64,000 nucleotides of DNA from NCBI GenBank assembly GCA_038064535.1, contig JBBTSX010000009.1, forward strand, positions 1,603 through 65,602, written 5' to 3'. This document shows, in pieces, positions 10,168-58,040 of this stretch; position 1 is the first letter of the stretch; every line of letters begins with the position of its first letter. The notes beneath the pieces are model-generated. The model ran no database searches. It was not told where the DNA came from and was given only the letters and a program-made list of their open reading frames with translations. Both the position numbers and the translations under genes were made by a program. The stretch is from Patescibacteria group bacterium (GTDB lineage: Bacteria > Patescibacteriota > Minisyncoccia > Phycocordibacterales > UBA2100).

Positions 10168-10249
10168 GGGCATGTGGCGGAACTGGTATACGCGTACGAT
10201 TCAGAATCGTATTCCGCAAGGATTGGGAGTTCGAGTCTCCCCATGCCCA
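10168..10249 (+). tRNA. tRNA-Leu (anticodon CAG), class II with long variable arm
   Basis: Acceptor GGGCATG/CATGCCC. Anticodon stem TACGA/TCGTA, loop TTCAGAA (U33, CAG, A37). 13-nt variable arm hairpin TCC-GCAA-GGA. T arm GGGAG-TTCGAGT-CTCCC. 82 nt, no CCA. Confidence 0.88.
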
Positions 10250-10251
10250 CT

Positions 10252-10971
10252 GTGAAAGTAACACCGGTCAAAACAGGGGTTTTTAAGGAACGCGAAAACC
10301 TCGCGGCTTTTGTGGCGCGTTATATACCGAAGCTTCAGAATGGTTCGATACTCGTTGTCACGTCGAAAATCGTCGCGCTTGCGGAAGGCTCCGTCGTAGC
10401 GGCTACGACGCCGCGCGCGAAGGATGCGCTTATCCGCGCAGAGAGCGATTGGCAACTTCAGGCGAAGGGCGGAAAAATAACTCTCAAAGACGGGTTGTTG
10501 ATGTGGAATGCGGGTATTGATGAGTCGAATGCAAAAGGCAACGTCATCCTCCTGCCAAAAGATAGTTTCAAAGCCGCCGCACGGTTGCGAAAAGCGCTCA
10601 TGCGACAGTTCCATATAAGGAACTGCGGCGTAATAATTTCTGACAGCCGTGTGATGCTGCTACGCGCAGGCGTCGTCGGCATTGCGCTCGGTTACGCCGG
10701 ATTCAAGGGTGTGCGTGATTACCGGGGCCAAAAAGATATGTTCGGTCGCAAACTCAAATTCACACAGACCGATATTGCAGATTCACTCGCGACCGCCGCG
10801 GCGCTCGTCATGGGAGAGGGGAGCGAGCAGCAGCCGCTATGCGTCATCGAAGACGCGCCGGTTGAGTTCGTCAATCGCGTCAACAAAAAGGAGCTTTTGA
10901 TACCGATGAAAGACGACATGTATGCGCCGCTGTTCGGGCGTGTTGTCCGAAGTCGCCGCACGAAAAACTAG
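10252..10971 (+). CDS. CofE-like protein (coenzyme F420-0:gamma-glutamyl ligase family, PF01996)
   Basis: VKVTPVKTGVFKE...ILVVTSKIVALAEGSVV...ISDS resembles CofE. The track ORF starts at 10174 inside the tRNA. Start is probably GTG at 10252, or ATG at 10243, which would overlap the tRNA 3' end by 7 nt. Confidence 0.6.
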   Translation: MKVTPVKTGVFKERENLAAFVARYIPKLQNGSILVVTSKIVALAEGSVVAATTPRAKDALIRAESDWQLQAKGGKITLKDGLLMWNAGIDESNAKGNVILLPKDSFKAAARLRKALMRQFHIRNCGVIISDSRVMLLRAGVVGIALGYAGFKGVRDYRGQKDMFGRKLKFTQTDIADSLATAAALVMGEGSEQQPLCVIEDAPVEFVNRVNKKELLIPMKDDMYAPLFGRVVRSRRTKN

Positions 10972-12587
10972 ATTCCCAGTTTCTTTCGGTACTTGAACCC
11001 AAGCGCGGCGAGGAGAATCAAAAAGGGTACGAGAAGCGTGTATTGCCACGGGTCCGTTGAGTTCACGCTCAGTACCGCGCTCGCCGCTTGTGCATCGGAA
11101 GAGGTGGCGGGGGAACCTGTAGCGGATGACTCGTTAATCGGAGTTTGCGGATTCTCATTGTCTGGAGCGTGTGCTGGAGCCGGTGCCTGAGCCGCGTTCA
11201 CTGCGGGGGATTCAGGCGTGGACGTTGCTGTTTCGGCAGTCGAAGTGGCCGCCGGCGCTGAGGTTGCAGAGGTTGTAACGGGCAGGGGCTTCGCAAATGA
11301 AGAGAGCAGGCTGTCCCACGTCGCACGTCTGATCCCCGGAATGGCATACGCGGTCGCCCACACACGGTCAGCGGTCGACGACGCATGTACGCCGCCGTCG
11401 CTGTCCTGAAGGGTTGCAAGGTAGTAATCGGGTGTGTAGCTGTCCTGTTGCCAATCGGTCGCGGTGCCGTTCATGGCGGCGATTGCCTGAAGCATCCAGC
11501 TTGAGGAATATGGGTCTCCGAAACTGCCGTCCTCGAGTTGCTTGTCGCGCAGGTACCCCGTAGCCTTGCTTATCGCATAGCGCACGTTGCCGCTATCCGG
11601 CATGAGCCTGAGGGCTTGAATAGCGGCGGCAGTGAGGTCGACACTGTCATTCCACAGACCGCTGGTTCCTTGCCTCGAAAGAATGAACGCAGTGGTCGAT
11701 GCGATAACAGGGTCGTTTTTTTCATATCCGGCATGGAGGAGCGGAAAGATTGCGAAGATGTCGTCGTTGACGAGCGACGGGTCGCCGAACTGTGTTCCGT
11801 CGAACGAACGTATAATCGGTTCGATGTAATCAACCGGCGTGCCCGAGTACGGATTTATCCCGAGCGCCTCGAGCGCCATCGCGTGGCGTTCATTCTCCGT
11901 GACGACCGTCGATATCACGGGGTGCGCTGTTTCGTATGCCGTGAGTTTTGCGCGCAACGTCGGGGATTCGCCGACCGCCGACGCAATCGCGACCCAGTCA
12001 TTGAGCATGGGCGACCCGAAAGAGCCGTCGGAATTTTGCACGCTCTCCAGATATTCGAATGCGGCCGGCACGTCGAAGGGCGGATGCATCCAAATGCCGC
12101 CGCTCCCGCCGCCTGCAGTTGTCGCGGCAGGCGGGCTTATCAGCGTGCCGATTTTGAATAGTACGGGAGAGCCGATTGTCGAGTTGTCGGTCCAATCCGT
12201 GAGCTGGAAGCTGAGCTGGTCGCCGCTCACGATAGTCATGGTGCTTAGGCCGGCATCGGAATATGCACCGTTTTTGTAGAGTGCCCAGTATTGGGTTGCC
12301 GAAGGCGCTGTGCCGTTGAGAGTCTGCACGTAAAAGCCGAACGTGTTGTCGTAGGTGAGTTGATACGAGCTTACGGCACCCTGCTCCTGTGCGGCGACCA
12401 GCGCGCAAATACCGAGGAACTGCGAGGTCGAATAAGTATGTGCGGTGCCGCCGCTGTCAGACGCGGTGCAGTGGTCGGCCACATTGACGGATAGTATCGG
12501 AGGAGGAGGCGGTGGCAGTACATCTGCGAGGGAGGCAGGGGGGAGGGCGAATAAAAGAGCGATTCCTATGCGCGCGAACGTTTTCAT
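10968..12587 (-). CDS. Secreted surface protein: signal peptide, DUF4430 (transcobalamin-like) domain, prenyltransferase/terpene-cyclase-like alpha-toroid repeats, S/T/A/P-rich linker and C-terminal TM anchor
   Basis: Signal MKTFARIGIALLFALPPASLA. DUF4430-like LTYDNTFGFYVQTLNG...YWALYKNG...GDQLSF. Repeats QNSDGSFG, QLEDGSFGD and QDSDGGV. C-terminus WQYTLLVPFLILLAALGFKYRKK. Confidence 0.65.
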   Translation of the reverse strand: MKTFARIGIALLFALPPASLADVLPPPPPPILSVNVADHCTASDSGGTAHTYSTSQFLGICALVAAQEQGAVSSYQLTYDNTFGFYVQTLNGTAPSATQYWALYKNGAYSDAGLSTMTIVSGDQLSFQLTDWTDNSTIGSPVLFKIGTLISPPAATTAGGGSGGIWMHPPFDVPAAFEYLESVQNSDGSFGSPMLNDWVAIASAVGESPTLRAKLTAYETAHPVISTVVTENERHAMALEALGINPYSGTPVDYIEPIIRSFDGTQFGDPSLVNDDIFAIFPLLHAGYEKNDPVIASTTAFILSRQGTSGLWNDSVDLTAAAIQALRLMPDSGNVRYAISKATGYLRDKQLEDGSFGDPYSSSWMLQAIAAMNGTATDWQQDSYTPDYYLATLQDSDGGVHASSTADRVWATAYAIPGIRRATWDSLLSSFAKPLPVTTSATSAPAATSTAETATSTPESPAVNAAQAPAPAHAPDNENPQTPINESSATGSPATSSDAQAASAVLSVNSTDPWQYTLLVPFLILLAALGFKYRKKLGI

Positions 12588-12611
12588 ACGGGTAACTGAT
12601 TAGAAATACTA

Positions 12612-13097
12612 TTAATAACTCTTTTCATAGCGCCACTCGACAGTGTCGCCGGCATGAATGGTCGCGTTTGAGGCTCCGAGGTCGGAAGATTTCCCGTTGA
12701 TATACAAAATCCAATACGCTCCGTCGCCGTTCTTTTTGCCGTTGATTGATTCGACGAAGAACCCGAGCGACGGATATTCTTTTCCCGTAAATTTGAAGTC
12801 GGTCGTAGATGCGAGGCTACGCATGAGTGCGAGGACGCTCTCGTTTGACGCGATGTATGTGCCATATATCCGGTCGCCGGCCTTGAACGTAACGTTATTT
12901 GCGGGAGATGGTGCCGCGGAGGTCTGTGATATTGAGGCGGGTGCGTGTCGCGGGGCAGTCTGCGCCGGTTCGGTCGTTGTAGCGACGAGCGGAGTCGCCG
13001 CCGCGCCCCCCGGTTCTGTGTATCCGGTGCGGGACACGGCGAAAATCGCCGCGACCAGCATGATGAGTATTCCGATGGTGATGTAATTTCTTTTCAT
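12612..13097 (-). CDS. DUF4430-domain membrane-anchored protein
   Basis: N-terminal TM IGILIMLVAAIFAV, a low-complexity linker, then FFVESINGKKNGDGAYWILYINGKSSDLGASNATIHAGDTVEWRY, the DUF4430 signature. Confidence 0.7.
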   Translation of the reverse strand: MKRNYITIGILIMLVAAIFAVSRTGYTEPGGAAATPLVATTTEPAQTAPRHAPASISQTSAAPSPANNVTFKAGDRIYGTYIASNESVLALMRSLASTTDFKFTGKEYPSLGFFVESINGKKNGDGAYWILYINGKSSDLGASNATIHAGDTVEWRYEKSY

Positions 13098-13118
13098 GTC
13101 ATAACAAAAATGTTTTGC

Positions 13119-14399
13119 CTATCGTAGCCCGCGCTTGATCGTCTCCTCGATAAGCATTCGCGGCCATCCGTAGGCGAGACGATTCAGCGTCACCACTTTG
13201 TCTTTCATTGGTCCCATTTCCGGTACCGATTCAGGCGGCAGGCTTGCGCCCGAAAATGGCGGACTCGTCTTCCCGTCAATCATGAGCTTGATGTAAAAAT
13301 TAAACCGCGGCAATCCCATGAAATCGGCCTCGGTTATCGGTGCGAACTCTTGGGCAAGAATCTTGGCGTCTTCCGCGCCAACCTCAAAAGAAACGAGAGT
13401 TCCGACATTGCCAAGGACGCTGTCACGGATCTCATCCGGCAACTGCGACAGGTATTGGTTAGTGAGGTGTACCCCTAGTCCGTATTTGCGCGATTCGCTG
13501 AGCAGGCTGATAAAAGTGTCGGTCGCGAAGTTCTGGAATTCGTCGACATAGAGGTAAAAGGGAGTCCGGTGTGTACTCTCTCGATTCGCGCGCTTGAGTA
13601 CCGCAACCTGTAATTTTGATATCAAGATCAACCCGAGCATATGCGCGTTCAGCTCACCGACCTTACCCTTCGACAGGTTCGCAAGCACAATGCTTTTGCC
13701 GTCCATGAGTGCGTCGAAGCTGAAGCTACTCGTGCGTTGACCCATGATGTTGCGCATCATCGCGTTGTTGAGAAACGGTCCGAATTTGGACATGAAGTAG
13801 TTGAGCATTTCGCTCTTGTGGAAGTCCGATGTTCTCGTCATTTGCTTGGCCCAGAAATCGATTACGAGCGGATCAGTCAGCTGCGCCCTCTTTTTCTTCT
13901 CGAATTCACGGTCAACGAACAGCCGCGGAATTTCCAGTATGTTCCCGCCGTCGGGCCCCGCCATGACCGTGAGCGCGGCATTGCGCAGCCAGTGCTCGAA
14001 TTGCGGGCCTATAACGCCGGTCTTTTTTGGGTCGAACAGTTTATAGAAGATCTGGATGCACTCGTTGACGAGGAAGTCTTTCTCAAATTCATCCCGCGCT
14101 TCCAGTATATTCAGTCCGAACGGGAACTCCGTATCACTCGGGTCAAAGAGTACAACATCTTTCAGTCGGTTGCTCGGGATGTGTTCCAAGAGCCAGTCGA
14201 TGGATTCTCCATGCGGATCGACGTAGCATACGCCGTGTCCATTCTTAATATCCTGCAGGCACATGTTCTGAAAGACGGTCGATTTTCCGACGCCAGTTTT
14301 CCCGATCATATACATGTGTCGCAGCCGGTCATCCGGCATATAACCGATGAGCTTTTTGCGGTCGCGCGTTTCGTGTACGCCTATATATACATTTGCCAT
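13119..14399 (-). CDS. VirD4/TraD/TrwB-like P-loop ATPase (type IV coupling-protein-like, FtsK-HerA superfamily). Soluble, with no N-terminal TM.
   Basis: Walker A MIGKTGVGKST and Walker B YLYVDEFQNF, with the TraG-D_C-like region. Paralog of 22425-24287. Confidence 0.65.
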   Translation of the reverse strand: MANVYIGVHETRDRKKLIGYMPDDRLRHMYMIGKTGVGKSTVFQNMCLQDIKNGHGVCYVDPHGESIDWLLEHIPSNRLKDVVLFDPSDTEFPFGLNILEARDEFEKDFLVNECIQIFYKLFDPKKTGVIGPQFEHWLRNAALTVMAGPDGGNILEIPRLFVDREFEKKKRAQLTDPLVIDFWAKQMTRTSDFHKSEMLNYFMSKFGPFLNNAMMRNIMGQRTSSFSFDALMDGKSIVLANLSKGKVGELNAHMLGLILISKLQVAVLKRANRESTHRTPFYLYVDEFQNFATDTFISLLSESRKYGLGVHLTNQYLSQLPDEIRDSVLGNVGTLVSFEVGAEDAKILAQEFAPITEADFMGLPRFNFYIKLMIDGKTSPPFSGASLPPESVPEMGPMKDKVVTLNRLAYGWPRMLIEETIKRGLR

Positions 14400-14403
14400 A
14401 GTG

Positions 14404-14724
14404 TTAAAAGATATCGGTGTCGAGCGGTTTTTTGACGAAATACTCGGTCTTGAGGGTCATGTGTAGTTTCTTGCGCGCATTCGCGGCCCGCGTCTCCGCT
14501 TCGATGTGTATCAGCAATACATCACGCTCGTACTGTATTTTCGTGCGGAGCGCTTCATAGAGGGGCGCACTGATGTCGGTTTCTAGAGAGGACAGCATTG
14601 TTTTGCGCAATTCGCACACCTCTTCCATCTGGATGTACGTCGGGTGCACCTCTGCCAATGTTTCCTGTGTCTCTTCACGAGAAGCAGTGCCCGGATAGCG
14701 TAGATGCTCGTTGGTTCGCGTCAT
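14404..14724 (-). CDS. Hypothetical 106-aa protein, translationally coupled to the upstream Clp ATPase gene (ATGA overlap)
   Basis: The track ORF spans 14404-14772. An internal Met at 14724 gives a 4-nt ATGA overlap with the stop of 14721-16385, and a 4-nt gap to the next gene. Confidence 0.5.
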   Translation of the reverse strand: MTRTNEHLRYPGTASREETQETLAEVHPTYIQMEEVCELRKTMLSSLETDISAPLYEALRTKIQYERDVLLIHIEAETRAANARKKLHMTLKTEYFVKKPLDTDIF

Positions 14725-16385
14725 ACAGAGGGAGAGTGTGTTAGCAATGACTGCGCGAGCAAGGTCTCGCACGTCTCTTCGATGAATCTCTTCACCGGCC
14801 GTGCCCCGAAACGCGGGTCCGATATGCGCTGCACCTGATCTTTCAGGACGCCGGGTTCGATCTCGAATTGCACACGGTGTTTTGCAAGCCGTCTTTCTAT
14901 TTTCTTGACCTCAAGCTGCGCAATCCGTATGAGGCTCGGTACGCCGAGCGGTTTGAATATCAGTATGCTGTCGAAGCGATTGAGGAATTCAAGGCGGAAT
15001 GTCTGCGCGAGGATGGGCATGATTTTCTCGGCGATGAACGATTCATCGTCGATATCACCGGCAGTGTAGGCCTCGAGAATGTGTGCGACGGCGACGTTCG
15101 AGGTCGCCATAATAATCGCATCGCGCGCGTCAACGGTATCGTTCTGTCCCGACGTCAGGCGTCCGTCGTCGAGCACCTGGAGAAAAATATCGAACACTTT
15201 TGGATGAGCTTTCTCTATTTCGTCGAGTAAGATAAGCGAGTGAGGCTCTTTGCGGAGTGCGTTGGTGAGCGCGCCGCCCTCTTCGTACCCGATATATCCG
15301 GCCGGCGCGCCGATGAGACGTTGTACAGTATGATCCTGCTGGAACTCCGACATATCAAAACGCATGAAGCGCTCGCTCGTACCGAACATAATCTCCGCGA
15401 CGCATTTCGCAGTTTCAGTCTTTCCGACACCGGATGGCCCGAGGAGGAGGAATGAGCCGAGCGGCCGGCGGGGGTCTCGTAGCCCGAGCTTCGCGCGCTG
15501 CAGACTTCGCGTGATTTTCGCGATTGCCGCCTCCTGACCGATCACGCGTTCGTTCAATTGCTGTTCGAGCGCACGTACGCCCTGCAGCTCATCTTCGCTC
15601 AGGCGCGCGCGCGGTACGCCTGTCTTGGCCTCGACGACGGTGGCGACCGTCTCATGCGAGAGTATTCTGCGGTTCGTCGAAGCAGAGAGTGAGATACTCT
15701 CATCGAGTAAGCGGATTGCCGAGCGCGGCAATTGGCCGAGCGTCGGGAATCGCTCCGCATACGCGACGATATCTTTCAGGATGTCCTCCGGGATGATGAT
15801 GCGGTGCCGGGCATTGAGCGTTGATACCGATGCGCGCGCAATGCGAACGCATTCGAACGATGTTTGATTCTTCAGGGCGATTGTCTCGAAGGCATTCAGG
15901 AACGAAGAGTGCTCTCGTTCGAGCCATGCGTGCTCATGGGGCGCGAGCGTGAGCACGACGTGTACGTCGGGTCGCCTCAGGATCTGCTTGTAGACACGAT
16001 GGATACGCTGCAAAAGCGGGCTGTTTTGATGCACCTCGTGACCAAAATCGTCGATGAAAAGAATGCACGGGGGAAGATGCGATAGTGCTTCTTGGAACCG
16101 ATCTTCAAGACCGCCGTTGTCATTGAGTGTGTGGAGATGTTCGACACTTATCTGGAGAAGTGCGAGCTGTTTGTTGCGCGCGCGGCTCGCCATGGCGCGC
16201 ATCCAGCCGTATACCATGGTGGACTTTCCGACACCGGCGGGCCCCACAATAACGGCATTGTTGCTGATGCGGCGATCGATCACGCGATCGAGTCGCGCCG
16301 TTTCGTCGCGCCGGCCGATGACGCGCGGGAGCCGACCCGCTACCTCGCGGAGGTCGTAGTATTCGATTTTTTCAGACATTTTCAT
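14721..16385 (-). CDS. Clp/Hsp100-family double AAA+ ATPase (ClpA/B/C-like D1 and D2), compact form lacking N- and M-domains
   Basis: D1 has Walker A GPAGVGKS and Walker B ILFIDDF (DD in place of DE). D2 has GPSGVGKTE, the pore loop RLIGAPAGYIGYEEGG and Walker B LILLDEIEKAH, typical of AAA_2. No IGF-type ClpP loop is obvious. Confidence 0.8.
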   Translation of the reverse strand: MKMSEKIEYYDLREVAGRLPRVIGRRDETARLDRVIDRRISNNAVIVGPAGVGKSTMVYGWMRAMASRARNKQLALLQISVEHLHTLNDNGGLEDRFQEALSHLPPCILFIDDFGHEVHQNSPLLQRIHRVYKQILRRPDVHVVLTLAPHEHAWLEREHSSFLNAFETIALKNQTSFECVRIARASVSTLNARHRIIIPEDILKDIVAYAERFPTLGQLPRSAIRLLDESISLSASTNRRILSHETVATVVEAKTGVPRARLSEDELQGVRALEQQLNERVIGQEAAIAKITRSLQRAKLGLRDPRRPLGSFLLLGPSGVGKTETAKCVAEIMFGTSERFMRFDMSEFQQDHTVQRLIGAPAGYIGYEEGGALTNALRKEPHSLILLDEIEKAHPKVFDIFLQVLDDGRLTSGQNDTVDARDAIIMATSNVAVAHILEAYTAGDIDDESFIAEKIMPILAQTFRLEFLNRFDSILIFKPLGVPSLIRIAQLEVKKIERRLAKHRVQFEIEPGVLKDQVQRISDPRFGARPVKRFIEETCETLLAQSLLTHSPSV

Positions 16386-16401
16386 ACTAAGAAGTCTTTA
16401 T

Positions 16402-18039
16402 TTACGCGGCCCGGCGGAGTGTAATACCATTGAGCTTGTGTGTCCGCTCCGCGCGAGTCGGGTCGCTATCGGTGTTTGGCGGTGGGGACGTGCGGAGCTT
16501 TGACAATGCTTCGGCATACCTGCGTTGGAGGAAAGGCGATACCGGCTGCTCTGCGGCCGCCACAATGCGCGGTCGTTCGACTCGCGGCTCCCGATCGCGC
16601 AGTACCTGTCGCAGAGGCGGTCCGGACTCTCGAGCGTCTGCGCGCGCGGGTTTCTCAGGCGTCTCGCGCACACTCGGGGCAGCTGTATCCGGAGTCGGTG
16701 CAGATTCGATCATGTCCTTGGGACCGTGTGGCCGTGCGTCGCGCTCCAATGGTTCGCTCTGCATATCTGACAGTGTGAGCAGTTCCTCTTTCAAGAATTG
16801 CTCGAGCGAAGCGATATGAACAATGGAGTCGTTGTGCGCCGGCTGCGCCAACTCGTGTATCTCCGATGTGAGGATGCCCGCCGCTTCTGATGTCGTCGGA
16901 GCAATGGACTCGACGCTGGTCGCGTCGATAGGCTCTTCACGTAGCGACTCCCGCGTGGCCGCGATATCAACAGCGAGGGTCTCGTCCGGCGTCCCGATAA
17001 CGGCAAAAAGATTTGCCTCGTGGAGCAGCTGGGTGACAGGCGACTCGGTGCGCTCACGTTGATATGGATCAATCGATGTTCGCTCGAGATTTTCGGAGTG
17101 ACGCCCAGACTCGATTTCTGTTGCCTTGTGGCGCGGCTCGTTTACGTGTTCGGGAACCGGGTGCCACTGTTCTGAGAATTGCGTTCGCACGTCTGAGAGG
17201 GTGGTGTGCTCCTGCGTTACAGACACGGGTGCCGCGACGCTCTCTCTGGAGGGCTCGTCTACGGATGTATGCAATATCCCATCTGACATATCGATTCCGG
17301 AGGCGTGCATGACGCCCGCTGCCTCGACACGGGACACATCGGTATGCAATGTCTCAGAAGTGCCGTTCGCCCCGCCCGTTGATTCTGCCGCTCGTGCGTA
17401 GGCGATTGCCGCGGCCTCTGCCGACAATGTGTCGTTCATGTGTTCTGTGGCTGGCTCTGGATGTTCTACAAAACGACCTCGTGTCTCTTGGTCGTGAGAA
17501 ACCTCGTGCTCGCGAGGCTCGATTTCCTCGGCTTTTCGCGGAACGAAAATCTCCCTGATCTCATACCGCACATTCTTGTCAGGGCCGAGTATAAGGACGG
17601 TGACGGATAGCCTTTCTCCGTCTGGCGTCGTTTCCTTGTGGTCGGGGAGCTGAAATATATGGTCCTTGTCTTGGTTTTCCTGCATCGCTTCGTTCCATTT
17701 CTGGACCATTTCCTGATGGACGAGCTCGTGCTCGGGGCTTCGTTCAACAGTGCCCCAATATGATTCCCCCGTTTGCGGATTAAATATCTCCTTGCCGTCA
17801 AAGACATACCCCTCGCCGCTGTATCGTAGTTCCCAATCCTCGGGCCTCGTACCGCCGATGTACTCGGTCAAGTGATGTGCAACCGGATCGATCGGGGCGG
17901 CCTCTTCCGACGGCCCGCTGTCGAACTGTGGTTGCGGGGTAGCCTCCGCATACGCAGGGGCCGGTTCGTATTCATCGTGCACTTCGAAATCACCGAGTTG
18001 CTCCTCGGTCTCGATAAATTCGTCGGTCTCTGTCGACAT
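16402..18039 (-). CDS. Hypothetical 545-aa highly acidic, low-complexity protein
   Basis: Long, strongly E/D-rich ORF on the coding strand of the operon, 16 nt upstream of the Clp ATPase gene. No recognizable catalytic motifs. Confidence 0.5.
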   Translation of the reverse strand: MSTETDEFIETEEQLGDFEVHDEYEPAPAYAEATPQPQFDSGPSEEAAPIDPVAHHLTEYIGGTRPEDWELRYSGEGYVFDGKEIFNPQTGESYWGTVERSPEHELVHQEMVQKWNEAMQENQDKDHIFQLPDHKETTPDGERLSVTVLILGPDKNVRYEIREIFVPRKAEEIEPREHEVSHDQETRGRFVEHPEPATEHMNDTLSAEAAAIAYARAAESTGGANGTSETLHTDVSRVEAAGVMHASGIDMSDGILHTSVDEPSRESVAAPVSVTQEHTTLSDVRTQFSEQWHPVPEHVNEPRHKATEIESGRHSENLERTSIDPYQRERTESPVTQLLHEANLFAVIGTPDETLAVDIAATRESLREEPIDATSVESIAPTTSEAAGILTSEIHELAQPAHNDSIVHIASLEQFLKEELLTLSDMQSEPLERDARPHGPKDMIESAPTPDTAAPSVRETPEKPARADARESGPPLRQVLRDREPRVERPRIVAAAEQPVSPFLQRRYAEALSKLRTSPPPNTDSDPTRAERTHKLNGITLRRAA

Positions 18040-18455
18040 ATTCTTTCGTTCCCATTCTTGTACGGAATGGACGCACGCACCGAAAACTCCCGGTTCGTGC
18101 CGGGGTCATAAATTACCTGCGAGGTGAAGACCTCTCAGAAGTGACTTGGCGCGAGCCGGATGTAGCCCCAGACAGAGGGGAATGTGTGCGGGACCCGGCT
18201 CTACGGTTACGCGATAGCGAGGGAATTGCGAGGGACTTTCTGAAGTCTCAGCTCACCCTACTTCACCGAACACCTACATGTTTCAATGGCGACTTACATT
18301 GTTGCATACAACAATGTCGTGTATCACGTGAATGGCGGTGGATAAGGAATCACAGAACGGGCTCAAGATAAGTAAAGTAGTCATGTCCATGAGATAAGCC
18401 AATATTAGTCATCGTTTGAGTTACGAAAGTGTATCTCACGGGGTATAGTGGCTCT

Positions 18456-22383: not shown

Positions 22384-22424
22384 CGGGAGCTACCACGCTC
22401 TCCGTGAAGCGGTATACTGCTCGT

Positions 22425-24287
22425 ATGCACGCCGATCATAAGGACGATGATCGTCGCATTACCTATTTTGCGGCGACACACACGCGCGGCAAGCGTGAGA
22501 TGTTTGGCATTCGCGCGATAGACCGAGGCAAGCACGTATATGTCATCGGCAAGACCGGCATGGGCAAATCGACCATGCTGGAAAATATGGCCATTCAGGA
22601 CATCCAGAACGGGGAAGGCATCTCGTTCATAGACCCGCACGGCTCGACCGCCGAAAAGCTGCTCGACTTCATCCCGCAGGACCGCATCAAAGACGTCGTC
22701 TACTTTGCACCGTTTGATACGGACCACCCCATCGGTTTCAATGTGATGGAGGACGTGGGCTTCGATAAACGCCACCTCGTCGTCTCCGGTCTCATGGGCG
22801 CACTGCGCCGCATTTGGGTGGACGCGTGGAGCGCGAGAATGGAATATATTTTGCAGAACACTTTGCTCGCACTCCTCGAGTATCCCGGTTCGACACTGCT
22901 CGACGTGAACCGCATGCTCACCAACAAGACATTCAGGAACACCGTCATCGAAAAAATAAGCGACCCCATCGTGAAGTCGTTCTGGACCGAAGAGTTCGCC
23001 GGATTCACCGACACATACACGCGCGAGGCGACGCCGGCCATTCAGAACAAAATCGGCCAATTCACCGCCAATCCGCTCATTCGCAACATCGTGGGGCAGG
23101 CGACCTCGTCGTTCGACCTACGCAAAATAATGGACGAGAAGAAAATATTCATCGTCAATCTCTCCAAGGGCCGCATGGGCGAAACGAATGCGTCGCTCCT
23201 CGGCTCGATGCTTACGGTCAAAATTTACCTCGCTGCGATGTCGCGCGCCGACGAGCCGGCCGCGCGCATGGCGAAATTGCCGCGCCACTATTTCTACGTC
23301 GACGAGTTCCAGTCGATGATGAACGAAGCGTTCGCCGATATTCTCTCCGAGTCACGCAAGTATAAACTCGCGCTCACGCTCGCCAACCAGTACATCGAGC
23401 AGATGGAAGAGGAGGTCCGCGACGCCGTGTTCGGCAACATCGGAACGCTCATCGTGTTTCGCGTCGGCCCGTTTGACGCCGAAGTGCTGGAGACCGTATT
23501 CGACCCCACGTTCACGCCTGAAGACCTTGTGGGCTTAGGCATCGGACAGATATATCTCACACTCATGATTGACGGCGTGGGTTCCCCGCCCTTTTCGGCT
23601 GAAACCATTCCGCCAATCGAAGTGCCCGCCATTTCGTATCGCAACGACGTCATTACAAATTCACGGGAGGCATTCGGCAGAGCACGTGCGGACGTGGAAG
23701 CGGCTATCGGCAAAAAACAGACAGATTTCGTCGCACCGCCGCGCGAAAAGAAAGAGCGTAGCGGCAGCACGTACGGAACGCGTCCGCGCTCGCCTGTCGC
23801 GCCCGCGCACACAGGGCAGGCGGGCGATGAAGCGCCCCGGCCCCTTCCGCCCCGCGCTCCCGATACTGCGTCTGCACTCGCCCGTCCGGAGGCGCGTCCT
23901 CCCGTCCCGCGCGTCGTGAGTGAGGCGGTACAACGCAACACACTCCGTGACGCCATAGAAAAAGCAAAAACCGAGGGCGTCGCAAAATCCTCGGGTGCGC
24001 CGGTTCGTTCACCGGCGGATATTCTCCGCGAAAAGCAGGGTAATCGTTCCGCGCCCAAGCCTCCAGCGCCGCCGCACCATAATCCGAAACACGCTCCGCA
24101 TCAGGCGCCGCGTCCGTCCGAGCAGCGCGACCCCCGCAAAAGCCACGCGCAACCCGTCTCGCCCGATGAGCGAGCGAGTCGAGGCGGGCCTCAGCACGCA
24201 GGAAGCGATTCGCACGACGGGGAAGTGTCCCCGCACGTACTGCAGCAGGTCATCAACGGCTCTAAACGGGACACAGACGACCTATAA
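22425..24287 (+). CDS. VirD4/TraD-like P-loop ATPase paralog with a ~200-aa Pro/Arg/Ala-rich disordered C-terminal tail
   Basis: VIGKTGMGKSTML and Walker B YFYVDEFQSM. About 50% identical to 13119-14399 over the ATPase core. The track starts at GTG 22404. ATG 22425 is preceded by TATACT at 22413-22418. Confidence 0.65.
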   Translation: MHADHKDDDRRITYFAATHTRGKREMFGIRAIDRGKHVYVIGKTGMGKSTMLENMAIQDIQNGEGISFIDPHGSTAEKLLDFIPQDRIKDVVYFAPFDTDHPIGFNVMEDVGFDKRHLVVSGLMGALRRIWVDAWSARMEYILQNTLLALLEYPGSTLLDVNRMLTNKTFRNTVIEKISDPIVKSFWTEEFAGFTDTYTREATPAIQNKIGQFTANPLIRNIVGQATSSFDLRKIMDEKKIFIVNLSKGRMGETNASLLGSMLTVKIYLAAMSRADEPAARMAKLPRHYFYVDEFQSMMNEAFADILSESRKYKLALTLANQYIEQMEEEVRDAVFGNIGTLIVFRVGPFDAEVLETVFDPTFTPEDLVGLGIGQIYLTLMIDGVGSPPFSAETIPPIEVPAISYRNDVITNSREAFGRARADVEAAIGKKQTDFVAPPREKKERSGSTYGTRPRSPVAPAHTGQAGDEAPRPLPPRAPDTASALARPEARPPVPRVVSEAVQRNTLRDAIEKAKTEGVAKSSGAPVRSPADILREKQGNRSAPKPPAPPHHNPKHAPHQAPRPSEQRDPRKSHAQPVSPDERASRGGPQHAGSDSHDGEVSPHVLQQVINGSKRDTDDL

Positions 24288-24363
24288 ACTCGGACTTTAC
24301 AAAATCCACATTATTTCCAACAATTCGGCTCTTTGTGCCAAGTTGTGAGGGATAATGGTCTTC

Positions 24364-25752
24364 ATGAAGACTTGGGTCGGGAGGTCAGGCCTCCTTTTCG
24401 TTTTGTTTTTCATCGTACCGCATGCGGTATCGGCGCAGGTAGCAAACGTTGTCTTTACGAGTGATGCACAAACTGTCCCAACGGATACGGTATCAAGTAC
24501 GCTGACTATTCAAACGCAAGATTCGACGGCCGGAAGCGTTTCGTTGCCGCAAACGGGCTGTCTGCAGTTGGAAACAACTTCCGCGAGCGGACAGTTTTCT
24601 TCGAGCGCGACTGGCTGGAATCCCGTGACGGTTTTGACCATGAACAAGAATACGGCCAATAAGAATTTTTACTACAAAGATGCGGCGGCGGGCACGTATA
24701 CGATAAAAGTCAGCCTTGCGCTGAAGCCGGAGACCGTAAGCGCCTCGTGTACTAACTGGCCGACATCGGGGTGGAATACAGAATGGTCCGCGACACAAAC
24801 CATCACTATTGGCGGCGGGCAAACAAACACAAGTACACAAGCGCAGGCAACATCGACTGATACGTCCGCAGGCACGTCATCGACCAACACAGCTCCGGCG
24901 CCCGCGCCCGTCTCTTCGTATGTCGCGCCGCCGGTACCACAGCTGTTTGCAGACGCGGGCGGTGACCGCACTGTCATCGTGGGCGCCGACACGCAATTCA
25001 ACGGCCGTGCATACAACCGGCAGAAGGAAAATGTCGAGCACGTCCGCTTCCTCTGGAATTTCGGTGACGGCTCCACCGCGGACGGCCCCACTGTCGTACA
25101 TCATTATGCATATCCCGGGCGCTATGCGGTGATGCTCACCATCGCTCAAAATCTTGACGCGGTTTCCGACCGCATCGTTGTGACGGCCGAGCCGGCCAAG
25201 CTCGCCTTTGACGTACCGTCCGACGGGAGTGTCGCCATAGAAAATCACGCGGGACGCGACCTCGACCTTTCGGGCTGGATAGTCCGTTCGACCGGTCAGC
25301 TATTCACCTTGCCGGAAGGTTCGGTCATTCTCAGCAATGAAACGATGCGCATCCCGCAGAAGACGCTGAAGTTCTGGAGCGGGACGCAAACGGAACTCGA
25401 TTACCCGAACGGCGTCGTCGTTCTGAGAGCAAATGAAAGTTCGGGAATGGTGGTTCCCGCTCCGGTTTCAGCTCCCTCGCCATCGCCGGTGCCATCCGTC
25501 GCTCCTGTCGCGCGTGCGCAAGCCGCTCCTAGCGGGAAGCCGGCGCAGGAAGACCTTCCTGAGGAAATTACTGCCGAAACCGCGCCGACTGCTTCACCGG
25601 AGGGGCAAACCGCGGCCGCGGCTGCTGCAGTTTCGTCAAACGGCATGTACTGGTGGTTGGGCGCACTCGCGCTCTCTGCACTTGCGGGAGGGGCTGTGTT
25701 TGTCGTCCGCCGCATCAAGGCGGGCGAGTGGGATATCGTTGAGGAAACATAA
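24364..25752 (+). CDS. Secreted surface protein with PKD domain, lamin-tail domain (LTD) and C-terminal TM anchor
   Basis: Signal MKTWVGRSGLLFVLFFIVPHAVSA. PKD motif FLWNFGDGSTADGPTVVHHYAYPGRYAVMLT. LTD-like VAIENHAGRDLDLSGWIVRS. C-terminus WWLGALALSALAGGAVFVV. Confidence 0.65.
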   Translation: MKTWVGRSGLLFVLFFIVPHAVSAQVANVVFTSDAQTVPTDTVSSTLTIQTQDSTAGSVSLPQTGCLQLETTSASGQFSSSATGWNPVTVLTMNKNTANKNFYYKDAAAGTYTIKVSLALKPETVSASCTNWPTSGWNTEWSATQTITIGGGQTNTSTQAQATSTDTSAGTSSTNTAPAPAPVSSYVAPPVPQLFADAGGDRTVIVGADTQFNGRAYNRQKENVEHVRFLWNFGDGSTADGPTVVHHYAYPGRYAVMLTIAQNLDAVSDRIVVTAEPAKLAFDVPSDGSVAIENHAGRDLDLSGWIVRSTGQLFTLPEGSVILSNETMRIPQKTLKFWSGTQTELDYPNGVVVLRANESSGMVVPAPVSAPSPSPVPSVAPVARAQAAPSGKPAQEDLPEEITAETAPTASPEGQTAAAAAAVSSNGMYWWLGALALSALAGGAVFVVRRIKAGEWDIVEET

Positions 25753-36317: not shown

Positions 36318-37265
36318 CTATAAGGCCAAGCCGTTGAGCCCTAAGTCACGATAATCCCGCTCAGCGTCGTGGATGAATTCATCCACCCGTGTCCGGACAC
36401 TTGCCTCCAGCTCTCTCAACCGTAAGTCGTCAAGGACGCTCTTCGGGTGGTCTGCCGTCGATTCCGGATTGGGTCGCCCACTCAAGAAAGTAAATTCAAA
36501 AGCGGGAATTTCAGGTCGCGATTGACCCGCGGTAATGATGACGGCAATACGGGGGTCTTTCTCGATACTCTGTATCAGTCTTTCCATTCGCTCGCGAAGT
36601 CGCTCTCCCATCGCCTTTGCTTTCGATAGCCGCAATTGCGGCAGGTACTCCTTGATCATTATGCGTAAATCGTCGAGCACGCTTTTTGGCGAATGGTAGG
36701 TTGATCCGGGATTCGGCCTGCCGTTCAAGTGTTCAGATTCAAATGCGGGGATTCCCGGCTGGAACTGCCCCGCGCGGATTACGACCGTGTTCATGAGATT
36801 CACGAGCCGGTCCGCATCCATGAGCGCCATTTGGACAGTGCTCTGGTCTTCCTGATTGAGCTCGTCATGACGGCACGCTGCGGCGTACATTTCGCTGAGC
36901 TCTCCGCTCGAGAAATAGCCTGGCGGAATGTACTTCAGATTCTGCATTATTTCTTCTCCAACTTCGTGCGGACCCTCGGAGACTTTCGCGATTGCAGCGT
37001 ACCGGTCGGTAGAATGCAGCATGCCCGCGCACCACGCCTTCTCCGCGGTGCGCTCGTCGGGGGCGATGTGCGCGGCAAGCTGGGCGACGGTTACATCGTG
37101 GTCCAATCCGTGCCCCCGGTGCTGGCGGACGGATTCGCGGTGGTCGCTGGCAATTGCGTCGTAGAAAGAACGGAATCGCTCGCGATATGCATCGAAACTG
37201 CGTATGCCGGCTTCTTCTCTCAAGGCGTGTGTTTTGTTCGTGCGGTCGGGAACGGCTTCATTCAT
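36318..37265 (-). CDS. HD-domain-like protein with internal ~50-aa tandem duplication
   Basis: HRGHGLDHDVTVAQLAAHIAPDE...AGMLHSTDR (H...HD...H.D). The C-terminal repeats PGIPAFESEHLNGRPNPGSTYHSPKSVLDDLR and PEIPAFEFTFLSGRPNPESTADHPKSVLDDLR are mirrored by a ~125-nt DNA tandem repeat. The track ORF extends to 37769 only by reading antisense through the rmlB-like gene. Confidence 0.45.
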   Translation of the reverse strand: MNEAVPDRTNKTHALREEAGIRSFDAYRERFRSFYDAIASDHRESVRQHRGHGLDHDVTVAQLAAHIAPDERTAEKAWCAGMLHSTDRYAAIAKVSEGPHEVGEEIMQNLKYIPPGYFSSGELSEMYAAACRHDELNQEDQSTVQMALMDADRLVNLMNTVVIRAGQFQPGIPAFESEHLNGRPNPGSTYHSPKSVLDDLRIMIKEYLPQLRLSKAKAMGERLRERMERLIQSIEKDPRIAVIITAGQSRPEIPAFEFTFLSGRPNPESTADHPKSVLDDLRLRELEASVRTRVDEFIHDAERDYRDLGLNGLAL

Positions 37266-37335
37266 ATGGAGAAGTATTTCACATCCTCGCTCACGGAACA
37301 ATCGTTTATCGCAGGAGCAGTGCGGAGTCGGTGAT

Positions 37336-37363
37336 TTGGAATATTTCGTCCGAAATGTAATAC
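37336..37363 (+). promoter_or_regulatory. Sigma70-like promoter TTGGAA-N16-TAATAC. The -10 ends 7 nt before the ATG, implying a leaderless transcript.
   Basis: TTGGAA at 37336-37341 and TAATAC at 37358-37363. The same element is duplicated at 35218-35246, upstream of the truncated paralog. Confidence 0.5.
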
Positions 37364-37370
37364 TGCTCGC

Positions 37371-38378
37371 ATGGCAAGTCCGAGAATAATAATAACAGGG
37401 GGGCTCGGGTTCATTTTCTCCCACGTCACCGAGCATTTTGTTAAGAAAGGGTGGGAAGTCGTGGTTATCGACAATCTTTCGGAAGGTTCTCATCCGGAAA
37501 TAATCGACGGATCTTTTAAACACCACGATGTCCACATGGCAGAACCGGATGTGGTAGGCCTCATCGTTAAAGAAAAGCCCGATTACATCATCCATGCCGC
37601 GGCCATAACCGATGTGGACTATTCGGTACGCGAGCCGTACCGCACGCTCAAGAAAAATGCGCTGGGGACATTTCATGCATTCGAGGCATGTCGTCAACTT
37701 CCTCACCTCAAGAAATTCATGTATGTCTCGACCGACGAAGTGTACGGCGAGTGCGAACATCCCATGCACGAAGATGAGATTATCTTACCGCGCAATCCGT
37801 ACTCGGCCTCCAAGGCGATAGGCTCGCTCCTACGGGTCACGTATGATAATACGTACCCGAATTTGACCGGTAAGACGGTGGAGACGCGTTTCTGCAACGT
37901 GTTCGGTCCTCGGCAAGATAGCCGGAAGATATTGCCGAAAATAAAACAAAGTTTGCAGGAAGGACTTTCGATACCCCTCCACAATGAGGGTAGCGGGTAT
38001 CGCGAGTATATATATGTCAAAGATATTCCTCCTGCGGTCGAGCTTATTTTGGAAAAGGGAGACGGCACATACAATGTCACGCTCAGTGACGGTTTTACGG
38101 TCGCGCAGTTGATAGAAAAAGCAAAAGAGGTCGCGGGCAAGGATATTCCGACGCACACGTCACATCGAGCGGGTATGGACATAAAATATCAGATGGACAG
38201 TACTCGTATCCGCGAGCTCGGGTGGAAGCCCCTGTATACGTTTGAAGAGAGTCTCAGAGAATATTTGCTCGGCGAACACGTGGTGCCGCAAGCTATTTCC
38301 CGAGGAACCCGAACGCTTACCCCATGGAAGCGTTTGTGGAATTTGATTCCGATTAAGCGTATACTGGGACCGCGATAA
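37371..38378 (+). CDS. rmlB: dTDP-glucose 4,6-dehydratase-like NDP-sugar dehydratase (extended SDR)
   Basis: IIITGGLGFIFSH, YVSTDEVYGE (STDEVYG motif), YSASKA. Followed by rmlC. Confidence 0.75.
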   Translation: MASPRIIITGGLGFIFSHVTEHFVKKGWEVVVIDNLSEGSHPEIIDGSFKHHDVHMAEPDVVGLIVKEKPDYIIHAAAITDVDYSVREPYRTLKKNALGTFHAFEACRQLPHLKKFMYVSTDEVYGECEHPMHEDEIILPRNPYSASKAIGSLLRVTYDNTYPNLTGKTVETRFCNVFGPRQDSRKILPKIKQSLQEGLSIPLHNEGSGYREYIYVKDIPPAVELILEKGDGTYNVTLSDGFTVAQLIEKAKEVAGKDIPTHTSHRAGMDIKYQMDSTRIRELGWKPLYTFEESLREYLLGEHVVPQAISRGTRTLTPWKRLWNLIPIKRILGPR

Positions 38379-47626: not shown

Positions 47627-48298
47627 GTGTGGGATACTATTTCGCATATGCAAGACGCCGGAGGGTCGGGCACCGTTAGTCGTTTCGTCAAAATATGGCG
47701 CCGCGTCCGCTGGCCGCTCGGTATCATTGTGATTGTATATATCGCCCTCGTCATCTTGCGCATTCCTGCGGTGCTGGAGCAACGGCGGACGGCGGAAACA
47801 GTCGACAGGATTCATGCGCAAAGGCTCACGCTCGAAAATGTCGACGGCAAACATCTCCCGCCGCCGCCCGACCCTGCGCAAGTAGACGCGACGATTGAGG
47901 GTGTGGATGCAAACGCAAACGGCATTCGCGACGACGTGGAGCTCGCGATTTTCGAGAAGTATCCCAGCTCCCCGTATACCCGTGCGGCCGAACTGCAGTA
48001 TGCAATGGCGCTACAGATGTATTTGACCGAGGTTTTCAACTCGGAGACGTGGGTTGCGGTAGCAATTCGTTCGGGAAAAGGCTATGGCTGTCTATACGAC
48101 ACGGTACCGAGAGTGAAACTGTCGGATAGTGACGAAGTAATACAACAGACTTTTGAAATAGTCCAAAAACGAATTGATGAAACGGAAAATCTAGTTTTCA
48201 ACACATCAAAGCGAAAGCATGTATACGATGAGGTAAACAGAAAGTTTACAACATCTTTTGGTGGGTCAGCGGACAAAAGCTGCGACTTATCATTGTAG
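47627..48298 (+). CDS. Hypothetical membrane-anchored protein
   Basis: N-terminal TM WPLGIIVIVYIALVILRIPAVL. Otherwise no recognizable motif. Confidence 0.4.
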   Translation: MWDTISHMQDAGGSGTVSRFVKIWRRVRWPLGIIVIVYIALVILRIPAVLEQRRTAETVDRIHAQRLTLENVDGKHLPPPPDPAQVDATIEGVDANANGIRDDVELAIFEKYPSSPYTRAAELQYAMALQMYLTEVFNSETWVAVAIRSGKGYGCLYDTVPRVKLSDSDEVIQQTFEIVQKRIDETENLVFNTSKRKHVYDEVNRKFTTSFGGSADKSCDLSL

Positions 48299-48308
48299 AC
48301 ATCAAGCC

Positions 48309-56742: not shown

Positions 56743-58040
56743 GGTGTCAAGTTTCCAACTCCGGGCTCCGCTGACACTTTCCGGTAGAGGACATAGGAGA
56801 GTCCGCCGATGATAAAGCGACTCGCGACGCGCGCGACGATAATACCCCACAGGCCCCACCAGATGACGCCGACGGCAAGCAGGAGTATCTGCGTCAGCCA
56901 TCCGACGACGCTGCTGATGTATTGTTCGCGGATTTTTTTCTTGGCAACGAGATACGAACCCGCCGGGCCGAATGCGAGTCCGAGGAGTGAAAGCGCATAT
57001 AGTTGTGAATACGGCACCGCTTCAATATAGGCGGGGAAGAGAATGAGGTACAAGAACGGAGCTATGAGTATGTATGCCGCCACGACAAGCGCGATAGAGA
57101 GAAAGAGCCATAAAAATTTATTCGACATACTCTGCCGTATGTGCAGGTCTTGATGATTCGCAAACCGGGCCTGCGTCATTGTGTCGAGATTTTTCAGCGG
57201 CCCTTTGACCTGGTCGAGGATTGACGTGGAAAAGACATAAATTGCGACTTCCGCCGCGCCGACATAATGGAACAAGAGCACCTGGTCGATACTGGTCGCG
57301 ATGCCTCCAAGTATCCCGATAGCGCTTAAGTGTTTCGCATAGGAGAGCATGCCGGCGTCTTTCTTTGCCGGGTCGGGACGGTATACGGCGAGAGTACGTA
57401 TATAAAAGTAGAGACTCGCGGCGGTGTTCGTGACGCAATAGATGAGTATGAGCCACAGAGGGTCTTGCGTTACAAAGATAGTGGCGACGAGTACAAGTAT
57501 CGGAAGGCCGTTCCCGATGCTCCCGAAGTAGAAGGATTGGCGGAAGAAGTCCTTCTTGCCCGCCAGAAATGAGCTTGCAAGATTCGCGCTGGAAAGGAAC
57601 GGCGAGAGGCTTCCCGCGATAAGCATCCCGATGGCAAGTGTCGTGTTGTCGTGGGCGAAATACCAGACCGAGGCCGCGAGCGCTCCCGCAAACACGAGGG
57701 CTCCCCAGCGCAGGTTTATCCAGAACCCCTCGTGTAGCGCCCCGTCATATCCGCGTGCAGTTGATTGGAAGACAGCAGCCCCCACATTATTCAGTGAAAA
57801 AGTGGACAGAAAGGCGACGGCAGAAAAGATGTATTTGTAGGTACCGTATGTCTCTTTGGGGAGATAGCGGCTGACAACGTACGCAAGTGCGAGCGAAATA
57901 AGCATGCTCACGAGTTGAGCCAGTATGGACCAAAAGCTCCCCGAGATGAGATATCGCGTGTCGATTTTGAAGTATCTTGCGCTCCAGTCGAGAAGTCTGG
58001 AGAGCCGTCCTGGCAGAGGTACCGTTGGCATTCCGCCCAT
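56739..58040 (-). CDS. Wzx-type oligosaccharide flippase (polysaccharide biosynthesis protein, MOP superfamily)
   Basis: About 12 TM helices, typical PST-family size and topology. Confidence 0.7.
   Translation of the reverse strand: MGGMPTVPLPGRLSRLLDWSARYFKIDTRYLISGSFWSILAQLVSMLISLALAYVVSRYLPKETYGTYKYIFSAVAFLSTFSLNNVGAAVFQSTARGYDGALHEGFWINLRWGALVFAGALAASVWYFAHDNTTLAIGMLIAGSLSPFLSSANLASSFLAGKKDFFRQSFYFGSIGNGLPILVLVATIFVTQDPLWLILIYCVTNTAASLYFYIRTLAVYRPDPAKKDAGMLSYAKHLSAIGILGGIATSIDQVLLFHYVGAAEVAIYVFSTSILDQVKGPLKNLDTMTQARFANHQDLHIRQSMSNKFLWLFLSIALVVAAYILIAPFLYLILFPAYIEAVPYSQLYALSLLGLAFGPAGSYLVAKKKIREQYISSVVGWLTQILLLAVGVIWWGLWGIIVARVASRFIIGGLSYVLYRKVSAEPGVGNLTP

Follow-up and report, generated by a model that had tools for sequence, protein, structure and literature searches.

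The Patescibacteria make up a large share of the uncultivated bacteria. Coupling proteins, like EccC-type ATPases, recognise their unfolded substrates by C-terminal signals, and the Clp enzymes ClpX and ClpA take hold of free C-terminal tags, for example ...LAA-COOH. The substrates of type IV secretion systems (T4SSs) must be unfolded in order to cross, and the word "unfoldase" is absent from a 2025 T4SS review, according to which a T4SS is essential for epibiotic growth in the only patescibacterial lineage tested (PMC12857230). Among the 5,713 VirD4-like genes counted in Patescibacteria, 148 lie near virB4, and the rest "may be exapted" (PMC12102498). Here we describe a conserved four-gene cassette on contig JBBTSX010000009.1 of a Patescibacteria group bacterium (assembly GCA_038064535.1; the 64,000 nucleotides (nt) analysed, positions 1,603 to 65,602, are called the window), in which an ATPase resembling type IV coupling proteins (T4CPs) is encoded together with a Clp-like AAA+ protein, a strongly acidic protein and a small protein.

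The four core genes, in order, with product lengths in amino acids (aa), are:
16402-18039, minus strand: core gene 1, acidic protein, 545 aa
14721-16385, minus strand: core gene 2, Clp-like protein, 554 aa
14404-14724, minus strand: core gene 3, small protein, 106 aa from an ATG start
13119-14399, minus strand: core gene 4, T4CP-like ATPase, 426 aa

In public annotation, these four products are named "hypothetical protein" or "AAA family ATPase". The enzymatic parts of the cassette all come from known superfamilies, and their combination is new to the literature searched, in which we found no description of the cassette, of its link to a Clp-like protein, of a pseudo-ATPase first AAA+ module (D1) or of the two partner proteins, nor of a dedicated T4SS unfoldase.

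The conserved unit consists of four genes and not of six, as the initial annotation, which had added two genes for DUF4430 proteins, had proposed. The same four-gene order is found in nine independent contexts of Kaiserbacteria/Paceibacteria-type Patescibacteria (the window and loci L001, L003, L087, L167, L169, L170/L172, L180 and L181). Neighbourhoods were fetched for eleven close relatives of the ATPase, with two further ones from a metagenome scan, and because the acidic and small proteins diverge too fast for similarity searches, their orthologues were collected by position from the fetched loci. The intergenic gaps in the nine contexts are a few nt or 4-nt overlaps, and the products span 395-843 aa for the acidic protein (as called), 553-562 aa for the Clp-like protein, 87-111 aa for the small protein and 426-442 aa for the ATPase. 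A tenth context at a contig end (L166), with an ATPase 58% identical to that of the window, holds the 3' end of a Clp-like gene, a 69-aa gene and the ATPase gene. Flanking genes are different in every context: downstream of the cassette elsewhere stand a lytic transglycosylase gene, rpsT (ribosomal protein S20), an S24 peptidase gene, ychF, sua5, an ABC ATPase gene or genes on the opposite strand, and apart from the window the one locus in which DUF4430 genes follow it is L005, a fragment with an identical (100%) ATPase. The proposed six-gene unit thus holds for its first four genes, whose order is kept, and fails for the DUF4430 pair, which is not conserved across the nine contexts and the cut-off contig.

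Averaged over all pairs from the nine contexts, identity reaches 74% between the ATPases and 59% between the Clp-like proteins but only 26% between the small proteins and 18% between the acidic ones; the cassette is shown to combine two conserved ring-type motors with two rapidly diverging partners. In L001 and L003, which share a Mur ligase at 71% identity, the acidic proteins align only locally. The MurD of the window was tried as a yardstick of divergence and set aside, as it is 24% identical to the L001/L003 Mur ligase and not orthologous to it, which leaves the L001-L003 pair as the only calibrated one. The best 120 database matches to the ATPase are full-length (398-452 aa) and 70-100% identical and, where named, come from Kaiserbacteria, Parcubacteria or Paceibacterota. 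The cassette, a chromosomal operon, is characteristic of Kaiserbacteria/Paceibacteria-type Patescibacteria, and among the places sampled a Clp-like gene accompanies the ATPase gene only where the ATPase is at least 58% identical to that of the window. Type IV pilus assembly genes (pilM and the ORFs, or open reading frames, that follow it) lie 3-8 kb downstream of the cassette in L001 (19455-21299) and L003 (14610-17133); neither pilus genes nor a lytic transglycosylase gene near the cassette is conserved in the remaining contexts.

The T4CP-like ATPase belongs to the VirB4/VirD4(T4CP)/HerA clade, in the VirB4/VirD4 branch of the HerA-FtsK superfamily. By the whole-protein cut-offs it qualifies for the Pfam families TrwB_AAD_bind, T4SS-DNA_transf and TraG-D_C (the last exactly at its cut-off) and matches TraD-type NCBIfam models weakly. 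A profile of 18 homologues, searched against solved structures, finds TrwB (6e-7) and DotL (2e-5) best, followed by HerA. The AlphaFold model built on the same 18-homologue alignment has a predicted local distance difference test score (pLDDT) of 90.6 and a predicted template modelling score (pTM) of 0.91. In structure comparison this model scores 28.5 with the C-terminal domain of VirB4, 27.8 with the C-domain of DptH (DndH), 25.9 with TrwB, 23.3 with DotL, 22.7 with HerA, 22.5 with Cag-beta and about 14-16 with EccC, FtsK and TcpA, at sequence identities of 12-16% to the solved T4CPs or VirB4. The model carries a helical insertion at about residues 104-233, and 343 of 420 TrwB residues align to it; the C-terminal domains of VirB4 and DptH match at least as well, and the insertion therefore cannot tell these families apart. 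The initial annotation had called the protein a T4CP/HerA-FtsK-type ATPase and had itself offered profile searches as a way to refute this; those searches, together with the structure comparison, left the call standing. The Walker A motif (GKTGVGKS), the Walker B motif (YVDEF, with the DE pair) and several Arg, Lys and Gln positions are invariant in the orthologues, from which the ATPase should be catalytically active.

No N-terminal membrane anchor is present in this ATPase, which has no 19-residue window with a Kyte-Doolittle hydropathy of at least 1.6 and whose NTPase domain begins at the start of the protein; its earlier description as soluble is thereby upheld. It thus differs from the T4CPs VirD4, TraD, TraG, TrwB and DotL, which have an N-terminal membrane domain, and also in its surroundings, where no VirB4, relaxase or other T4SS gene lies nearby among the ORFs scanned and the operon partners are a Clp-like AAA+ protein and two fast-evolving proteins. 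The coupling protein TraJ of pIP501 also lacks a membrane anchor. The type VII ATPases EccC and EssC are unlike the cassette ATPase, EccC having membrane segments and three ATPase domains. The window encodes a second T4CP-like ATPase without an anchor about 4.4 kb from the cassette (22404-24287, plus strand; the true start is probably the Met at residue 8). Its product is 38% identical to the cassette ATPase over the whole ATPase domain (TrwB_AAD_bind, 3.4e-7) and ends in a C-terminal tail of about 190 aa that is rich in Pro, Lys, Arg and His and is basic, not acidic; a gene for a PKD-domain protein (24355-25752) follows.

Most relatives of the ATPase are of a different, longer form. In a search of 1.84 billion cluster representatives, most of the best 150 relatives are about 800 aa or longer, with the ATPase domain at about residues 380-800, and the matches listed from genome and metagenome scans are likewise mostly long-form paralogues and not the cassette. 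These proteins come from Saccharibacteria, Microgenomates, Magasanikbacteria and Peregrinibacteria. At the N-terminus they carry a single membrane segment and a domain of about 370 aa (the N-domain) without a Pfam match, and no Clp-like gene neighbours theirs. They are among the orphan "t4cp" genes (PMC12102498) and, like the cassette ATPase, are mostly encoded away from virB4; their ATPase domain is 44-53% identical to it, but they differ from it in length (760-2,006 aa) as well as in the membrane segment, the N-domain and the missing Clp-like neighbour. The idea that gene fission had turned the long-form N-domain, or a small ORF upstream, into the cassette partners was tried and rejected, with hhalign probabilities below 1%. 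In the longest forms (P0125-P0135, 1,584-2,006 aa), the membrane-anchored ATPase is fused to a C-terminal extension of 800-1,200 aa, which is acidic in most of them (Asp plus Glu up to 17%, Lys plus Arg 5-6%) and ends in a conserved GEVFVDExGNVIIGE. The terminal peptide differs in sequence from that of the cassette's acidic protein. By analogy, these fusions hint at an arrangement that mirrors the cassette, with an ATPase, a long acidic tail and a conserved C-terminal tip joined in cis rather than supplied in trans.

The Clp-like protein is derived from ClpB and lacks the N and M domains. It matches the Pfam families AAA_2 (2e-56) and ClpB_D2-small, and its alignment to Escherichia coli ClpB starts at about residue 160, past the N domain, and skips residues 400-511, the M domain. 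The second AAA+ module (D2) aligns to E. coli ClpB with 296 bits and D1 with 40 bits. D2 is 50-60% identical to ordinary ClpB D2 and is intact, as it is in all nine orthologues, with the pore loop GYIGYEEGG, the Walker B motif LLDEIEKAHP, sensor-1, the Arg finger and GARPVKR. D1 presents a different picture when the nine orthologues are aligned with an ordinary ClpB from locus L009. Its Walker A motif is kept in all nine, but in all nine the Walker B motif reads DD, DN or DT instead of DE (FIDDFGH in the window), the two Arg fingers (ERRFQ in ClpB) are lost and replaced by, for example, LNAFE or VRLFE, and the pore loop K[YF]RG is replaced by a variable, non-aromatic sequence without Tyr. Since the catalytic Glu, the Arg fingers and the pore-loop Tyr are absent from every orthologue, D1 is, as judged from these residues, a pseudo-ATPase tier that probably still binds nucleotide, and D2 is the predicted sole motor. 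The initial annotation had described a compact double AAA+ Clp protein without N and M domains and with a DD Walker B in D1, and both Pfam and the ClpB alignment agree.

In having two tandem AAA+ modules with a canonical D2 and D2-small domain, the protein resembles ClpB/Hsp104, ClpA, ClpC and ClpV. It departs from the ClpB/Hsp104 disaggregases in lacking the N domain, an active D1 and the M-domain coiled coil, and because this coiled coil is missing no coupling to DnaK is expected. It is also unlike the ClpP partners ClpA, ClpC and ClpX, since it has no N domain and the IGF/IGL loop is not seen: reading the sequence between the D2 sensor-1 and the Arg finger (SNVAVAHILEAYTAGDIDDESFIAEKIMPILAQTF), which we take from ClpA to be the position of the ClpP-binding loop, revealed no IG[FL] tripeptide. 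Nor is it a ClpV (TssH): it scores 361.6 against the TIGR03345 cut-off of 884.95, lacks the N domain and has no type VI secretion system (T6SS) family in its neighbourhoods, and the absence of T6SS genes argues against that identity. The type VII protein EccA is again different, being a single-ring CbbX-type AAA+ protein with TPR repeats.

The acidic protein contains 19.6% Asp plus Glu and no Cys, and has an isoelectric point of 4.7 and a net charge of about -54, in keeping with its first description as extremely acidic. It has no match in Pfam, NCBIfam or PADLOC, and a similarity search returned only the protein itself and one relative, 36% identical. A gene of this type always lies directly upstream of the Clp-like gene, and the orthologues, counted after trimming ORF start extensions, have 18-24% Asp plus Glu, net charges of -41 to -119 and 0-2 Cys. 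The protein is predicted to be mostly disordered, with a probable small N-terminal domain. Its two conserved features are:
17530-17883, minus strand: conserved N-terminal region of the acidic protein, a block of about 120 residues (about residues 53-170)
16405-16434, minus strand: C-terminal peptide LNGITLRRAA-COOH, with the family motif [LF][ND]G[IV]x[LM]x[RI]x(0-1)A at the free C-terminus

Compared with the relative P0272, the acidic protein is 36% identical over its whole length and 56% identical over its N-terminal 200 residues, and GG, W, FDG, PD and DG..VTV positions recur in the block of nine orthologues. This region is probably a small folded domain of beta strands with one helix and a three-stranded sheet; a PDB profile search with it gave nothing below E = 0.06. 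When 13,033 ORFs from 186 loci and this region of the window were scanned with the C-terminal motif as a regular expression, every hit fell at the end of the gene that precedes the Clp-like gene. On this pattern, the C-terminal peptide is read as a putative docking or recognition peptide. The acidic genes of L170 (2698-3963) and L172 (2176-3963) differ in their central region by an in-frame block of 174 codons, an extra copy of a repeat beginning ESQEAEGSIVTLEPP, while their ATPase genes are identical and their Clp-like genes nearly so; the difference is either a strain polymorphism or an assembly collapse.

The small protein is encoded by a gene of 69-111 codons between the Clp-like and ATPase genes in every context. 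Its N-terminus is variable, its middle shows, to the eye rather than by prediction, a helix-like pattern of residues, and near its C-terminus stands the conserved motif L[DN]xxYF..K.L. Pfam, NCBIfam and PADLOC gave no match, a PDB profile search gave nothing below E = 0.06 and a similarity search returned only the protein itself. It is read as a putative adaptor. The type VII systems offer no parallel here either, as no EccB, EccD or EssB gene accompanies the cassette and the small protein has neither the WXG motif of WXG100 proteins nor any detectable homology.

Taken together, we consider an export-linked module for client unfolding and hand-over, with the channel encoded elsewhere, to be the leading reading by analogy with related families, at a probability of roughly 0.4. 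The acidic protein would be a client or hub whose C-terminal peptide docks on one of the rings. The D2 ring of the Clp-like protein would engage it and either thread it or keep it unfolded and extended, and the T4CP-like hexamer would receive it as coupling proteins take C-terminal signals. The T4CP-like ring may then hand the client on to a channel in the envelope, for which the relaxase-less patescibacterial T4SS is the most plausible candidate, and the small protein would act as an adaptor, coupler or regulator between the two rings. This scheme is drawn from the behaviour of the families concerned, namely the C-terminal signals of coupling proteins, the C-terminal tags of Clp enzymes and the unfolded passage through T4SSs. 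The idea of unfolding and translocation raised in the initial annotation survives, as something we infer, for the co-conserved acidic protein and not for the DUF4430 proteins. A bolder version, in which the cassette would be a dedicated machine that prepares a polyanionic, DNA-mimicking effector for export into a relaxase-less T4SS, perhaps into host cells, is doubtful; in it, a coupling-protein ATPase with DNA translocases as its ancestors would have taken on the new task of feeding the fast-evolving acidic protein to that channel, helped by an unfoldase of its own derived from ClpB.

Several observations weigh against export. None of the four cassette proteins has a hydrophobic segment, so that the cassette holds no membrane or channel component, and it has no conserved envelope neighbour, the VirB1-like lytic transglycosylase that directly follows it being confined to one context (L001). 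No match to VirB4 families was found among the four ORFs of at least 550 aa outside the six genes, and no VirB4 or relaxase family among the 35 window ORFs scanned, which take in all those of at least 550 aa (about 42-64 kb scanned in part); VirB4 and relaxase Pfam families are not listed in the fetched cassette neighbourhoods of the other contexts either. The degenerate D1 pore loop is unusual for an enzyme that threads processively from D1 to D2. Finally, the AlphaFold model of the acidic N-terminal 200 residues (two sequences) was of low confidence (pLDDT 46.9) and was not used.

Given that there is no membrane component and no conserved envelope neighbour, a purely cytoplasmic machine, in which both rings and the acidic hub would work on a target inside the cell, is possible and nearly as likely as export. 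In one variant the polyanion would mimic nucleic acid and regulate or occupy a DNA-translocase-type ATPase; in another the machine would remodel a large assembly, such as a nucleoprotein, that takes part in the uptake, segregation or repair of DNA. Such a role is disfavoured by the Pfam and profile searches, which favour T4CP families over HerA or FtsK, by the lack of a conserved nuclease, helicase or DNA-binding partner in the cassette and by the fast evolution and length polymorphism of the acidic protein, which are more typical of an exported or interface protein than of a housekeeping regulator. It is also conceivable, if rather unlikely, that the genes share synteny without a joint mechanism, the Clp-like protein serving as a general chaperone or disaggregase and the ATPase doing a separate job. 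The physical interaction of the products is, after all, something we infer, and D2 stays close to that of ordinary ClpB. The Clp-like protein nevertheless lacks the M domain on which a DnaK-coupled disaggregase depends, its D1 is degenerate, and at least one patescibacterial lineage (L009) has an ordinary full-length ClpB. Mere synteny also leaves unexplained why four genes keep their order and tight gaps over nine contexts while all other neighbours are reshuffled, and why both partners keep C-terminal peptides.

The model of the initial annotation, a six-gene system for the secretion or surface assembly of DUF4430 proteins, is now very unlikely. The six genes do share one strand, with gaps of at most 24 nt and no evident internal terminator, and DUF4430 genes lie 1-3 kb upstream of long-form ATPase relatives in five Microgenomates loci. 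Their absence beside the cassette in every other context largely refutes the model, and the N-terminal hydrophobic segments of the two proteins fit Sec export; the Microgenomates DUF4430 genes, for their part, are clustered with genes for ribonucleotide reductase, cobalamin adenosyltransferase and DUF6580. The least probable of the readings is a mobile-element or anti-phage defence module, although HerA- or T4CP-type and AAA+ ATPases are common in both settings. PADLOC matches to mad8, HerA, PDC-M37B and DolB are weak and partial, cover only generic P-loop or AAA regions and do not extend to the two partners. Other anchor-less relatives of the ATPase (44-47% identical) do occur among transposase, resolvase, SIR2 and ResIII genes, without a Clp-like gene. 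The cassette itself has housekeeping neighbours, no integrase and a guanine-plus-cytosine (GC) content equal to that of its flanks; its closest ATPase relatives, the 120 matches described above, are full-length proteins of Patescibacteria where named; and 2.9 million viral contigs yielded six distant relatives of the ATPase at 31-42% identity and none above 42%.

The two DUF4430 genes that adjoin the cassette in the window lie outside its conserved core:
12612-13097, minus strand: small DUF4430 gene, 161 aa
10968-12587, minus strand: large DUF4430 gene, 539 aa

The 161-aa protein matches DUF4430 at 8e-15 and has a hydrophobic segment at residues 3-21. The 539-aa protein scores 23.8 bits for DUF4430, exactly at the cut-off, and 20.7 bits for SQHop_cyclase_C, below the cut-off, with a weak match to Cobalamin_bind that is also below the cut-off; its hydrophobic segments are at residues 7-25 and 513-531. 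It is laid out as an N-terminal hydrophobic segment, DUF4430, an alpha/alpha-toroid of the prenyltransferase/squalene-cyclase-like kind, a linker rich in Thr, Ser, Pro and Ala, and a C-terminal anchor, and NCBI names it a prenyltransferase/squalene oxidase repeat protein. The DUF4430 domains, toroid and C-terminal anchor had been recognised in the initial annotation, and Pfam and hydropathy bear them out, the toroid below threshold.

DUF4430 is the C-terminal domain of the transcobalamins, which bind vitamin B12 (PMC4350170). In the five Microgenomates loci (L046, L050, L051, L059 and L063), the DUF4430 gene stands between genes for a cobalamin adenosyltransferase and a DUF6580 membrane protein, in a cluster that adjoins a ribonucleotide reductase gene with a TSCPD domain (L046, 310-6927); Pfam assigned the families (Cob_adeno_trans etc.) for L046, and for the remaining four loci the matching order was recognised by eye. 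Because this context is related to B12, the window DUF4430 proteins are predicted to be exported or anchored binders of ligands, probably corrinoids; no cobalamin riboswitch was found in the window. That DUF4430 and this ATPase family lie close together in two distant lineages may reflect old synteny or coincidence. The DUF4430 genes are best seen as a separate surface function that neighbours the cassette here by chance and may be co-transcribed with it. That the cassette delivers or assembles them, as once suggested, is unlikely given the absence of DUF4430 after the cassette elsewhere, the corrinoid context and the Sec-type N-termini; since such N-terminal hydrophobic segments fit Sec export, the proteins would not need a cytoplasmic unfoldase.

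In the window, the gaps along the six-gene run are 16, -4 (an ATGA overlap), 4, 21 and 24 nt, and the ORF list confirms the coordinates, minus strand and gaps first reported for all six genes. It also offers a GTG start for the small protein, which would give 122 aa; alignment with the orthologues favours the ATG, and supports a start at 14724 that yields 106 aa and overlaps the stop codon of the Clp-like gene. In a scan of 10-19 kb, promoter- and terminator-like sites were no commoner than after shuffling of the sequence, and within the run no site is conspicuous. Because none rises above chance there, a single transcript across the six genes is a plausible prediction. A tandem-repeat search of the region found nothing beyond chance. 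About 50 nt upstream of the acidic gene start, in the 389-nt divergent spacer between that gene and murD, a GC-rich hairpin is followed by a T-run (CCCGGCACGAACCGGG AGTTTTCGG; 18089-18104, minus strand); the regional count of such sites is below chance expectation, and the hairpin may mean nothing.

The GC content of the run is that of its surroundings. On one flank lie murA, purT and purN (recognised by eye from translations), an F420-0:gamma-glutamyl-ligase-like gene (Pfam) and a tRNA-Leu gene; on the other lie murD and murC (by eye) and a TP_methylase gene. This tRNA-Leu(CAG) gene (10168-10250) falls within the 5' end of the mechanically called ORF 10174-10971, which means that the ligase-like gene has its true start further on, at about 10252; the stop codons of this gene and of the convergent 539-aa gene overlap by 4 nt (10968-10971). 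Further along, at about 25700-58100, a long series of sugar-nucleotide, glycosyltransferase, aminotransferase, C-methyltransferase and polysaccharide-export genes points to a large locus for surface glycans, which includes three large ORFs without a Pfam match (36318-37769, 48258-50135 and 54967-56901).

The cassette gives a large clade of orphan T4CPs fixed partners and candidate docking peptides that can be tested. The pairing of its two rings is conserved about as well as a core cell-wall enzyme, and a ClpB-derived ring tied to a coupling-protein-like ATPase is a concrete candidate for a T4SS unfoldase. If the machine proves to be cytoplasmic, it would still join a HerA/FtsK-superfamily ring to an Hsp100 ring with a pseudo-ATPase tier, a combination as yet undescribed. 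Should the export of a polyanionic effector be true, the cassette would provide the first dedicated unfoldase of a type IV-like pathway and would be a lineage-wide symbiosis factor of these ultrasmall bacteria.

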